Both the position numbers and the translations under genes were made by a program. Source: Candidatus Hodarchaeota archaeon (GTDB taxonomy: Archaea > Asgardarchaeota > Heimdallarchaeia > Hodarchaeales > Hodarchaeaceae). Taken from it: a stretch of 44,211 nucleotides of DNA. Of the stretch, positions 12,795 through 39,050 are shown one piece after another. The stretch's first letter is position 1; the number at the start of each line of letters is the position of its first letter. The stretch covers positions 1 to 44,211 of the forward strand of contig JAEOTQ010000024.1 of assembly GCA_016839785.1 (NCBI GenBank), in the 5' to 3' direction. Under the pieces are notes generated by a model. The model did not search any database. It was not told where the DNA came from and worked only from the letters and a program-made list of their open reading frames with translations.

Positions 12795-14093
12795 CTAATT
12801 ATGGATAAAATAAACTGAAGGGCGTTCTTCCATACAATACGTTGAATTGAAAGATATTGAATACGCTCCTGCTTGTAAAAAGACAATATATTCTTTTTCT
12901 TCTATTTTGCCTAATAAAACCAAACCATCTAATTCATCTTTTCCTTTATAGTAATCTAACGTATCATTAGACGATCCCACAATTTGATACTTAATAAGTG
13001 GTACTTCGAGATTGTATTTCACCTTTTTGATTGGGAACTGCCAATCTGCAATTATAACATCTGGGATAGTATTGTAAAAACTTCCATTAACACATGCGAT
13101 GTTTAAATTGGATTCTCTTTCTTTAATCACAGAGATTTCAAACGCTAAAATACCCGCAGGAGCGGTTAAATATCTTCCTGATTCAAGAATTAAATCTAAT
13201 GATGATAGTTGACCAGCAAAGACTTCTTTTATTACTTCGCTGAACGATTCGATTCTTGGAACATTTTTTTCTCCGTAATAAATAGGAAATCCTCCCCCGA
13301 TATCAAGTGTATTTACTTTGAGGCCTATCTCCTCAATTTGGGTAATTAGAATGCTTATTTTTCTCATTCCTTCCCTATATTGATCCAAATTTACGATTTG
13401 GCTTCCTAAATGAGCATGAAGACCTTGAAAATTCAACCATTTCGATTTCACACAATAATCGAATATATCTTTGAATTGGGAATCCATTGTCAAGTTTTCT
13501 GGCGTTAGAATACCAATTTTACTATTCCTACCTGCACACGAAAATAAGGTATCTTCTAATTGTATACCCGGATTTACACGTAGTAAAATATTTACCGAGA
13601 CTTCTAATGCCTCACAGACTCCCTCAATTCTTTTCATATCACTCCAAGAATCAATTGCAAATAAACCAATCCCTTGATCAACGCAATACTCAATCGTCGA
13701 CACATTTTTCACAATGTTAGTAAATATAATCTTGCTTGGATCCCCACCAAGAGCATTGATATGTTTTACTTCTCCTATAGAGGTAACTTCAAAATAAGCA
13801 TTTTTTTCCATGAATGTCTGAGCCACCTCAGTTAGGGGATTAGATTTCACAGAAAAAGCAATCTTCAAAGATTGGCTATTAAGGGAAGTAAAGGCCTTGT
13901 AAATTCTTTCAAATTGTAGTTGAAGAATTTTCTGAGAAAACACAAATAATGGAGTCTTATGCTGTTTTAGGAGCTCTTCTAGGTTCAATTCATTGAAATA
14001 AAGATTATTCCCTTGGTATTCAAACAATAAATACTCCTTTTCATCTAGAATATCTCTTTCAGAGTTCAAGACTTCTGTAGCTCCTACCTTCAA
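12795..14093 (-). CDS. PLP-dependent fold-III (Orn/DAP/Arg) decarboxylase
   Basis: FSVKSNP (PLP Lys), LRVNP, HAHLGSQ, DIGGGFP, ESGRYL, AGAY; substrate inferred only from context. Confidence 0.88.
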   Translation of the reverse strand: MKVGATEVLNSERDILDEKEYLLFEYQGNNLYFNELNLEELLKQHKTPLFVFSQKILQLQFERIYKAFTSLNSQSLKIAFSVKSNPLTEVAQTFMEKNAYFEVTSIGEVKHINALGGDPSKIIFTNIVKNVSTIEYCVDQGIGLFAIDSWSDMKRIEGVCEALEVSVNILLRVNPGIQLEDTLFSCAGRNSKIGILTPENLTMDSQFKDIFDYCVKSKWLNFQGLHAHLGSQIVNLDQYREGMRKISILITQIEEIGLKVNTLDIGGGFPIYYGEKNVPRIESFSEVIKEVFAGQLSSLDLILESGRYLTAPAGILAFEISVIKERESNLNIACVNGSFYNTIPDVIIADWQFPIKKVKYNLEVPLIKYQIVGSSNDTLDYYKGKDELDGLVLLGKIEEKEYIVFLQAGAYSISFNSTYCMEERPSVYFIHN

Positions 14094-24377: not shown

Positions 24378-24734
24378 ATGAAAAAACGTCCTTCCGCTTT
24401 GTTTGGTGAACATACAATGAGTTCCGATTATAAAGGATGGGCTAATCTACCCAAATCCGTTAAAATGTTAGACATTTCACTGATTGGTTACGGAATATTA
24501 CTTATAATTTCATTCGCAATATATTTTTTCATTCTTGATCAAACTGTGCAGAATCTTATGCCAATATTTCTTGTAGCGTTATTACTACTATTTACATGGA
24601 ATTTTCGTTCCAAACTGCTCTCTCAAGCGAAGAAGGAAGTTGAAAAACGATATTTCCGAGAATGGGTAATCATCTCCATAATTCTAATCAGCATGATTGT
24701 ACTTCTCATTATCTTCTATCCAGTAACTTATTAG
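24378..24734 (+). CDS. Small three-TM membrane protein
   Basis: Three hydrophobic segments; likely start at ATG 24417 after a GGTGA SD. Confidence 0.75.
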   Translation: MKKRPSALFGEHTMSSDYKGWANLPKSVKMLDISLIGYGILLIISFAIYFFILDQTVQNLMPIFLVALLLLFTWNFRSKLLSQAKKEVEKRYFREWVIISIILISMIVLLIIFYPVTY

Positions 24735-24799
24735 TAGAATTGTTCATCCTAGCAATTAAAGATAAGACTAGCCAATCTATTCTTTAGATGAGAAATCTT

Positions 24800-24872
24800 T
24801 CACTTATGATGAGGTTATCCCCGAATGAGTTGTTTAGACAACGATGAACTCATGAAGAGCCGTCTGAAGTGA
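24800..24872 (+). ncRNA. Dual-guide box C/D sRNA targeting the LSU rRNA peptidyl-transferase centre
   Basis: Terminal stem TCACT/AGTGA; box C ATGATGA 24806-12; guide GTTATCCCCG; D' ATGA 24825-28; stem GTTGT/ACAAC; C' ACGATGA 24841-47; guide GAAGAGCCG; box D CTGA 24864-67. Confidence 0.88.
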
Positions 24873-24916
24873 TTTTCAATCATTGTACTTATTTCACCAA
24901 AGGAGTAGGACCTATC

Positions 24917-25186
24917 ATGAAGATAGATTTAATGGAAATACTAGCTTGTCCAATCTGTAAGAATGAGGAGCTTAAACTCATTATTATTGAAAAGGATAAA
25001 GAGGAAGTTGAAACAGGACTGATTACGTGTAATAAATGTTCTAGATATTATCCCATAAAGAAAACCATTCCAATCATGCTACCTGATGATTTACGAGATA
25101 TGGAAGAAGATAGAAAGTTTTTACTTTCCCATAAAGAAAAGATTCCAGATGAAGTTTTGAAAAATGGAAAGCCTGTATCACTTTAG
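24917..25186 (+). CDS. trm112: Trm112 methyltransferase activator
   Basis: LMEILACPICK...GLITCNKCSRYYPIKKTIPIMLP; ATG 24917 after an AGGAG SD. Confidence 0.93.
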   Translation: MKIDLMEILACPICKNEELKLIIIEKDKEEVETGLITCNKCSRYYPIKKTIPIMLPDDLRDMEEDRKFLLSHKEKIPDEVLKNGKPVSL

Positions 25187-34658: not shown

Positions 34659-34733
34659 TGGACCGAGTGGGATTTGAACCCACGGCCTCCTGGATGCAAA
34701 CCAGGCGCTGCTACCAAGCTGAGCTATCGGCCC
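34659..34733 (-). tRNA. tRNA-Ala(TGC)
   Basis: Acceptor GGGCCGA/TCGGTCC with G3:U70; anticodon arm CCTGG-TTTGCAT-CCAGG; T loop TTCAAAT. Confidence 0.96.
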
Positions 34734-38747: not shown

Positions 38748-39050
38748 CTATTCGATATATTCAAGAATTTTGGAATTTCCTGGATCTAGGATAGCAATTG
38801 TTGAAACTTTATGTGGACGTCCACATACAGCTCCCAACTCTTTTCCACTTTTTTCATAAGAGATAATTGGTATTTTTGAAAGCTCGCAGTTTCTCTTTAA
38901 TTCTTCTGCAATGTTCAAGGGTAAATTGCTAGAAACAATCGTTGCTTTTACTTTCCCACTTAGTACACTTTTAAGGACATCATTGTATCCCATTTTTACT
39001 TTCCCTGTACTCATTGCCATATTTATTGCCTTTTCAATGTCTGGTTTCAT
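38748..39050 (-). CDS. rpl30e: 50S ribosomal protein eL30
   Basis: TGKVKMG, ELGAVCGRPH, ILDPGNSKIL. Confidence 0.97.
   Translation of the reverse strand: MKPDIEKAINMAMSTGKVKMGYNDVLKSVLSGKVKATIVSSNLPLNIAEELKRNCELSKIPIISYEKSGKELGAVCGRPHKVSTIAILDPGNSKILEYIE

Follow-up and report, generated by a model that had tools for sequence, protein, structure and literature searches.

A candidate box C/D guide RNA family of Asgard archaea with two predicted targets in the peptidyl-transferase centre of 23S rRNA

Archaeal box C/D small RNAs (sRNAs), such as the sR families of Pyrococcus, Sulfolobus, and Pyrobaculum, are reported to be 50-70 nt long with guides of 10-12 nt (PMC7994747). Here we describe an element of this kind at positions 24800-24872 on the forward (+) strand of a contig from Candidatus Hodarchaeota archaeon. 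This contig of 44,211 nt (JAEOTQ010000024.1, or C148 in our numbering), which we call the window, belongs to a 4.04-Mb assembly of 248 contigs that is 84.5% complete and has 36% G+C. The element resembles the archaeal sRNAs in the order of its boxes (C, D', C', D), in its guides of 12-13 nt, in having dual guides to nearby sites in 23S rRNA, and in the presence of genes for L7Ae, Nop5, and fibrillarin. It differs from them in its length (73 nt), in its relaxed D' and C' boxes, and in that its C'/D' motif has a stem I of its own, of 4-5 bp, as in a kink-turn (K-turn), whereas the archaeal motif is described as a kink-loop (K-loop) (PMC7994747). Also, no archaeal family in Rfam reaches threshold on the element. 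We propose that it is probably the founding member of a family of box C/D sRNAs that spans several Asgard lineages and that would guide 2'-O-methylation of 23S rRNA at G2446 and C2510 (E. coli numbering is used throughout), in the peptidyl-transferase centre (PTC). What is new is the sRNA family; the kind of RNA itself is already known, here with a K-turn variant of C'/D'.

Similar guides have been described in Nanoarchaeum equitans. NeqsR03 carries AAUUAUCCCCGC (UUAUCCCCG) before its D' box, which is similar to the first guide of our element, and the 23S rRNA of N. equitans reads GGGGGUAAC, with a G at position 2448, as does 23S rRNA from the genus of the window (PMC4644070). NeqsR04 carries GAAGAGCCAAG (GAAGAGCC) before its D box (PMC4644070). 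In contrast to our element, the two N. equitans guides are in two separate sRNAs, and by our own count NeqsR04 would point to G2509. Going by the guide sequences given in that report, the predicted target sites are not unique to Asgard archaea among the archaea.

In eukaryotes, both sites have candidate counterparts whose guides are small nucleolar RNAs (snoRNAs). Yeast Gm2815 is reported to be lost when snR38 is deleted (PMC5027498). In published tables, Arabidopsis Gm2816 (AtsnoR38Y) is equated with human Gm4392 and yeast Gm2815, and Arabidopsis Cm2880 (AtU49) is equated with human Cm4456, with no yeast site; neither of these two rows lists a site in Pyrococcus abyssi or E. coli (PMC8583080, PMC11542601). 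The human guides are listed as SNORD1A-C for Gm4392 and SNORD49A/B for Cm4456 (PMC11550049).

Anatomy and conservation of the element

By inspection of the sequence, the box C/D layout at 24800-24872 (+) is complete within about 73 nt. The element reads UCACU-U-AUGAUGA-GGUUAUCCCCGA-AUGA-GUUGUUUAGACAAC-G-AUGAACU-CAUGAAGAGCCGU-CUGA-AGUGA, which gives, in order, the terminal stem, C, a 12-nt guide (guide 1), D', a 14-nt hairpin, C', a 13-nt guide (guide 2), D, and the other half of the terminal stem. Its parts are as follows, where "genus copies" are the 17 aligned copies from the genus of the window:

24800-24804 (+): 5' half of the terminal stem, UCACU (TCACT in the DNA), which is stem I of the C/D K-turn; pairs with 24868-24872
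24806-24812 (+): C box AUGAUGA; UGAUGA is invariant in 17/17 genus copies
24813-24824 (+): guide 1, the D' guide, 12 nt; its core GTTATCCCCG (RNA GUUAUCCCCG) at 24814-24823 is invariant in 17/17
24820 (+): C, the fifth nucleotide upstream of D'; pairs with 23S G2446
24825-24828 (+): D' box AUGA, relaxed; GA alone is conserved
24829-24842 (+): internal hairpin GUUGU-UUAG-ACAAC; GUUG/CAAC is invariant in 17/17
24844-24850 (+): C' box AUGAACU, relaxed; UGA at 24845-24847 is invariant and the 3' half is variable
24851-24863 (+): guide 2, the D guide, 13 nt; core GAAGAGCCG at 24854-24862, with GAAGAGCCGU invariant in 17/17
24859 (+): G, the fifth nucleotide upstream of D; pairs with 23S C2510
24864-24867 (+): D box CUGA, invariant in 17/17
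24868-24872 (+): 3' half of the terminal stem, AGUGA; 5 bp with UCACU

An initial annotation, made by a model from the sequence alone, had proposed the C, D', C', D layout with terminal and internal stems, and every element was found at the coordinates that it gave, on the + strand. D' and C' can form the tandem G.A pairs, as the GA of D' and the UGA of C' are invariant; the remainder of these boxes is non-consensus, and the first two letters of D' are AU, AG, UU, CA, or CU across the genus copies. No open reading frame (ORF) of at least 40 amino acids on either strand covers the sRNA; only a frame with a GTG start overlaps it, and this frame is in fact the downstream gene, trm112. When we lowered the thresholds of Rfam, all 10 matches at the sRNA were to C/D snoRNA or sRNA families, all far below threshold (the best scores, against the gathering cut-offs, were SNORD33, 22.6 vs. 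44; snoR38, 20.0 vs. 45; and sR12, 10.2 vs. 38). We also scanned all 4.04 Mb of the genome for a perfect C box followed 40-100 nt on by CTGA, with a terminal stem of at least 5 bp. This strict scan gave just 13 candidates, and the element is among them. A minimum-free-energy fold that pairs AUGAGUU with AACUCAU (z = -2.59) was not adopted because this helix is present only in the window's genome (G000) and its closest relatives.

The element is widespread in the genus. BLAST found it in 17 of the 21 other genomes (E <= 1.4e-11), and a covariance model (R1) that was built from the 17 intact genus copies (alignment A2) found it in 18 of them. Intact copies are present in 16 of the 21. It was not found in G007, G009, or G031 (71%, 80%, and 86% complete). 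Three copies are damaged: the second copy in G018 has a spoiled C box, the copy in G033 is without its 5' part, and the copy in G013 is without its 3' part.

Across the 17 genus copies, 46 of the 75 aligned positions are invariant. The invariant positions include UGAUGA, GUUAUCCCCG, the GA of D', GUUG, CAAC, the UGA of C', GAAGAGCCGU, CUGA, and GUG in the 3' half of the terminal stem. Variation is seen in the nucleotide that follows the C box, in the first two letters of D', in the hairpin loop (with indels of 1-2 nt), and in the 3' half of C'. Between the more distant members of the genus, neither the 70 nt upstream of the element nor the spacer between it and trm112 is alignable. In the terminal stem, 84.7% of the cells of the genus alignment are paired. 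This pattern of conservation is not codon-like and is as predicted for a C/D guide RNA.

G018 contains two copies of the sRNA, about 480 nt apart and on opposite strands (contig C187, 24791-24866 and 25348-25415; loci L025/L056/L060). The copy at the usual place before trm112 has the spoiled C box, and the other copy is intact.

Pairing with 23S rRNA and orthologues beyond the genus

Because the PTC region of the organism's own 23S rRNA is absent from the assembly, we examined pairing with 23S rRNA from the same genus. The sole 23S from the genus that gives the PTC region is L008 (from genome G005; Rfam model positions 1423-2973), which reads CCCCGGGGGUAACAG and GAUGUCGGCUCUUCCUAG at the two target regions. 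Guide 1 forms 10 contiguous pairs (9 Watson-Crick and 1 G.U) with CGGGGGUAAC in L008 and in the metagenome contigs L248 and L250; in L008, position 2448 is where the U.G wobble falls. The match of guide 2 to CGGCUCUUC, with 9 Watson-Crick pairs, is found in the same three sequences and in 23S rRNAs of the class. L250 and L248 are 96.6% and 93.6% identical to L008 and have the same two target words, as do all of the 80-86% identical metagenome contigs that reach both sites. In the window's own genome, the target words occur only as the antisense of the sRNA and at three chance sites, and a BLAST search of that genome with the 23S rRNAs of its relatives found just 3'-terminal pieces of 23S, which are diverged copies.

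By the N+5 rule, under which the methylated nucleotide is opposite the fifth guide nucleotide upstream of the box, the D' guide points to G2446 and the D guide points to C2510. We checked the numbering against rrlH of E. coli (NC_000913.3), where CGGGGAUAAC is at 2443-2452 and CGGCUC is at 2507-2512. Thus, both the complementarity of the guides to conserved large subunit (LSU) rRNA and the two target nucleotides, as put forward in the initial annotation, hold up on a 23S rRNA from the same genus.

A full-length 23S rRNA (L001, on contig C57 of G001) was considered as a same-genus reference and was set aside, as this is probably a mis-binned contig. L001 is only 64-67% identical to the 23S pieces from the genus and is on a 6.3-kb contig. 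It is less identical to the same-genus 23S than are the 23S rRNAs from other classes, and is the most distant 23S that we compared. It contains GGGGAUAAC, which pairs perfectly with guide 1, and GUCGUCUCUUC, which mismatches guide 2.

Beyond the genus, R1 matched none of the 61 genomes from other families of the class. We built a broader covariance model (R2) from 13 sequences (alignment A3) and used a sample of 151 genomes from the phylum. Searching with R1 and then R2, we found orthologues in five families: f1 (7/7 genomes), f8 (4/4), f18 (3/3), f28 (1/1), and f11 (6/26). The initial annotation had staked its proposal on the motif being present in relatives, which is borne out by the intact copies within the genus and by these five families. 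We also scanned one genome per species for an exact pattern, which gave at least 119 matches. Among the matches listed, 14 have both C and D boxes; 13 of these are of the genus type and the other (L163) is on a GC-rich contig from Promethearchaeota, with both guides the same and with CCGCCC/GGGCG as the internal stem. The other 105 of the 119 matches listed lack the boxes and are nearly all bacterial, at about the number expected by chance (estimated by hand).

Where the target differs between lineages, the guides differ with it. In genus g19 (family f8), the organisms' own 23S rRNA reads CGGUUCUUC, with U at position 2510, and guide 2 is GAGGAACCG, with A opposite this U and one G.U pair; at the other site, the 23S reads CGGGGAUAAC and guide 1 is UUUAUCCCCG. 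In G178 and in G025, the 23S reads CAGGGGUAAC and guide 1 is GUUACCCCUG. (In G025, this guide is carried by a compact sRNA with a different second guide.) Because guide and target covary in this way from lineage to lineage, the prediction is unusually firm for one made only by computation. The terminal stem covaries as well: it is UCACU/AGUGA, UAGGC/GCCUA, GAGGC/GCCUC, or GCGAC/GUCGC, depending on the lineage, so that all five pairs change on both sides. Across the lineages, 89.2% of the stem's cells are paired, as compared to 59.4% if shuffled (none of 500 shuffles reached the observed value) and 31-38% if the stem is slid.

Other weak hits of R1 or R2 were rejected as non-orthologues. G117, G108, and G173 have C/D sRNAs with other guides; the hits in G177, G169, G129, G007, G031, and G069 and the second hit in G008 (on C49) have no boxes or no matching guides; and the hits in G059 and G057 are ambiguous and possibly coding.

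The family also varies in its internal motif. In the genus copies, the GA of D' is followed directly by GUUG(U)...(A)CAAC, then by three nucleotides ending in U, and then by GA. This predicts a K-turn geometry: a canonical stem, tandem G.A pairs, and a bulge of 3 nt. The internal stem is 96.5% paired, and four of its pairs never vary; the fifth pair is U-A in 12 of the 17 copies, G-C in one (a compensatory change), U-G in one, and unpaired in three. Both the sequence and the length of the hairpin loop are variable. The usual description of archaeal C'/D' motifs is that of a K-loop (PMC7994747, PMC5389607), which has a short closing loop as a typical trait rather than a requirement; in its place, the genus copies have a conserved hairpin of 4-5 bp. 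L163 has a different, GC-rich stem at the same site. By eye, the orthologues from f18 and f11 have mini-stems of 2-3 bp, and those from g19 have a plain loop of 6 nt and are compact K-loop sRNAs of 65-66 nt. Thus, the initial description of the element as snoRNA-like is right only in part: the internal hairpin is real and conserved, but guide spacers of 12 and 13 nt are typically archaeal and the g19 orthologues are compact.

The window's genome contains two other convincing C/D candidates, on the minus strands of C180 (G000:C180:17987-18042) and C116 (G000:C116:55060-55110). Both are compact; their C and D boxes are perfect, and their terminal stems have 6-7 bp. This implies that the internal stem is a trait of this sRNA family and not of the organism's sRNAs generally. 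For the C180 candidate, guide 1 is complementary over 10 nt to a stretch in the 5' half of a 23S rRNA from the genus.

We made several other observations about the rRNAs. Position 2448 of the PTC, which is A in E. coli, is G in all five of the class 23S rRNAs that were first found to have this region (L002, L004, L007, L008, and L009) and in 32 of 41 metagenome contigs (the fetch pattern allowed either base); this G is common to N. equitans. Within helix 89, between the two predicted methylation sites, 23S rRNAs of the class have an insertion of about 46 to about 385 nt, which could be an expansion segment or an intron. It is seen in L008 (around 1560-1610), in L003 (4046-4491), in L007, and in the metagenome loci L230-L270; its length differs among close relatives, and some are without it. 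A 16S match (L198, at G008:C9:1695-3919) spans 2225 nt for a model of 1478 positions, so that the 16S gene may contain about 750 nt of inserted sequence or intron.

We also found several diverged orphan copies of the 3' end of 23S rRNA (its last 130-300 nt, with the sarcin-ricin loop), which are 75-88% identical to 23S from the genus. In the window's genome (G000) these are on C33 (around 2723-2852 and 13389-13516), C63 (around 23-178), C106 (around 785-1088), and C5 (around 64-342); others are on G002:C65 and G008:C8. They share a common start position in the rRNA and are set among ordinary cellular genes. Genomes of the genus have one or two such pieces each, sometimes with two on one contig, 9-18 kb apart. 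A search around the pieces on C33 revealed no integrase on that contig.

The trm112 locus and alternative explanations

Downstream of the sRNA is the following gene:

24917-25186 (+): trm112-like gene (PF03966, 35.8 bits, cut-off 22)

Its ATG at 24917 is 44 nt downstream of the end of the sRNA, and the initial annotation was right to place the sRNA just upstream of trm112. In all 20 of the genus loci, trm112 adjoins the sRNA on the same strand, with 4-50 nt between the end of the sRNA and the gene. In G001 and G017, the ATG follows after just 4 nt, and so co-transcription of the sRNA and trm112 is likely. The common gene order in these 20 loci is a GTPase-like gene (-), a small membrane protein (+), the sRNA (+), trm112 (+), and a gene for a 687-amino-acid protein (-), and some loci are rearranged relative to this order. 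The small membrane protein, which is directly upstream of the sRNA (24378-24734, + strand), is syntenic across the genus; its match to the DAD/OST2 family (21.5 bits) is below the cut-off of 27.

This arrangement raises the question of whether the element is instead a cis-acting leader of the trm112 mRNA, in which L7Ae would bind the K-turns and control translation or stability, with the complementarity to rRNA being secondary. L7Ae is reported to bind K-turns in archaeal mRNAs and to regulate their translation (PMC5539422), and like those leader elements, ours is a K-turn element directly upstream of a coding gene on the same strand; furthermore, the 4-nt gap in G001 and G017 leaves no room for a separate promoter. 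However, our element differs from the mRNA leaders in having two conserved guides that are complementary to rRNA, and outside the genus it is away from trm112. We tested 11 loci from outside the genus, and none adjoins a trm112 homologue; the 7 of these that are orthologues (L163, L181-L185, and L188) keep the guides. (The 11 loci include one of the three f18 orthologues and none of those from f11; the others from these two families are L220-L226 and L228.) Linkage to trm112 is therefore a feature of the genus, and a purely cis-regulatory role is unlikely. Also, a leader that binds protein has no need of invariant guide cores of 9-10 nt that covary with 23S rRNA elsewhere, and co-transcription with a neighbour is compatible with an sRNA that acts in trans. 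Overall, we consider the leader explanation to be very unlikely.

Several observations weigh against a guide RNA with these two targets. At the gathering thresholds of Rfam, the window contains only a tRNA and nothing at the sRNA (as the initial annotation held in calling it unannotated). A search for rRNA in the window's own genome gave no LSU or small subunit (SSU) match, with the PTC region of its 23S unassembled. Guide 1 has U and never C opposite G2448 in every genus copy, so that this pair is a wobble. When we made 5,000 shuffles of each guide and compared them to 13.9 kb of rRNA loci, 1018 shuffles of guide 1 and 897 of guide 2 had a contiguous match of 9 bp with at most one G.U pair. 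Because matches to a single guide are not rare, the weight of the prediction rests on conservation and covariation. D' is without the consensus 5' C and C' is without the second GA. In yeast, such variants of stem II are reported to shift or double the methylated nucleotide (PMC5389607); thus, the assignment of G2446 is uncertain by about 1 nt. Family f18 has A(C/U)GA as its D box, and its N+5 would by our own count fall on G2508. In f11 and in G178, guide 2 has A opposite G2508 (the organism's own 23S was checked for G178 alone); we looked for a better target of this guide in the 23S of G178 and found none. As for expression, the one clear RNA run (X8) covers only 24411-24739, which is the upstream ORF; X9 covers 24777-25016, including the sRNA, and is flagged "probably DNA"; and X14 covers 24566-24758. 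Finally, in the literature that we searched, we found no methylation map of any Asgard rRNA.

Might the element be a chance motif, or a dead relic without function? The RNA run that covers just the upstream ORF, the lack of any Rfam family at threshold, and the degenerate copies in G018 (G018a, with a damaged C box), G033, and G013 are what this would predict. Yet the pattern of conservation already contradicts it, with 46 of 75 positions being invariant in 17 copies whose flanks cannot be aligned. The covariation of the stem, the covariation of guides with targets, and the orthologues in five families are further evidence against it, and we find this explanation barely credible.

Another alternative is that the ribonucleoprotein (RNP) is chiefly a folding chaperone for rRNA, which would clamp the strands that flank helix 89, with methylation being dispensable or partial. 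G2446 and C2510 are 64 nt apart, one on each side of helix 89, and in the class this helix contains the long insertion described above. The literature notes that dual archaeal guides can address nearby sites and that methylation has a role in folding and stabilising nascent rRNA (PMC7994747, PMC4644070). Furthermore, the tolerated G.U pair, the mismatch at position 3, and the shifts in register that some lineages show would fit selection for pairing rather than for an exact nucleotide. On the other hand, strict spacing to D and D' and the N+5 register are kept in most lineages, and the same two nucleotides are methylated in eukaryotes. A chaperone role is also not exclusive of methylation. As the chief function, it seems to us unlikely.

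We therefore return to the guide RNA. The genome encodes the proteins of the expected machinery: fibrillarin (271.9 bits) adjoins Nop5 (222.6 bits) on C189, and L7Ae (92 bits) is on C43. Box C/D guides are expected in any archaeon with fibrillarin and Nop5, and so the existence of such a guide here is no surprise. In our proposed mechanism, the element would act in trans as an archaeal box C/D sRNA of about 73 nt. It would probably form the 5' leader of a joint transcript with trm112 and be trimmed to the core that is protected by protein. L7Ae would bind two K-turns. In the terminal one, C and D combine with the UCACU/AGUGA stem; in the internal one, the GUUGU/ACAAC hairpin serves as stem I, together with the GA of D' and the UGA of C'. 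Assembly of Nop5 and fibrillarin on the RNA would follow, and the two guides would base-pair with 23S rRNA in the PTC, one on each side of helix 89. Fibrillarin would then 2'-O-methylate the nucleotide opposite the fifth position of each guide: G2446 for the D' guide and C2510 for the D guide. We infer transcription, processing, RNP assembly, the methylations, and the exact nucleotides. We judge the element to be a genuine gene for a previously unannotated box C/D sRNA.

Two other features in the window are:

38763-39038 (-): ORF for a second L7Ae-family paralogue (61.7 bits)
34659-34733 (-): tRNA gene

Relation to eukaryotic guide RNAs

The initial annotation gave yeast Gm2815 (snR38) and human Cm4456 (U49) as the equivalents of the two predicted targets, and this agrees with the rows of the published modification tables. 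If U2552 is equated with yeast Um2921 and human Um4498, the resulting offsets of 369 and 1946 are consistent with G2446 and C2510; this mapping assumes that there is no indel between 2446 and 2552 in eukaryotic 25S/28S rRNA. By this mapping, the predicted G2446 would correspond to yeast Gm2815 and human Gm4392, and the predicted C2510 would correspond to human Cm4456.

Guide 1 also resembles the guide of snR38, AtsnoR38Y, and SNORD1A-C (Rfam RF00213, snoR38). They share the guide core and its register to the box, GUUAUCCC.G..UGA, and in a sub-threshold Rfam match, GUUAUCCCUGU-CUGA, the guide of the plant snoR38 consensus, is aligned in the register of guide 1. The same guide core in the same register implies the same target, namely yeast Gm2815, Arabidopsis Gm2816, and human Gm4392. 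In contrast, the element's score of 20.0 bits is far from the gathering cut-off of 45, with the alignment running through the boxes and the guide only, and the eukaryotic guide has CCCUG for its CAGGGAUAAC target. This likeness does not show common descent with eukaryotic snoR38.

For U49, SNORD49, and AtU49, the likeness is in the target site: the predicted C2510 matches human Cm4456 and Arabidopsis Cm2880. The sole sub-threshold Rfam match with a similar guide is plasmodium_snoR28 (17 bits vs. 63), and yeast has no 2'-O-methylated nucleotide at this site.

The sites in common with eukaryotes are real as predictions, and they could reflect inheritance or convergence. Under inheritance, the Asgard dual-guide family would be the direct forerunner of snR38/SNORD1 and of U49/SNORD49, both PTC methylations would have been passed down vertically, and the dual guide would have been split later. 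We regard this as a tentative and rather doubtful scenario. If it were true, the internal K-turn with its closing stem would be an intermediate towards the architecture of eukaryotic snoRNAs. A full-text search found no papers on C/D sRNAs from Asgard archaea, with subscription journals and the supplements of preprints being outside its reach.

In summary, our analysis defines a conserved guide family in the Asgard archaea, which are the closest known archaeal relatives of eukaryotes. Both of its predicted targets are PTC nucleotides whose counterparts are methylated with snoRNAs in plants and humans, and at one of the two sites in yeast as well. The family may give a handle on whether some sites of rRNA methylation in eukaryotes, and the guides for them, were passed down from the archaeal ancestor, and on how the K-loop and K-turn versions of the C'/D' motif interconvert.

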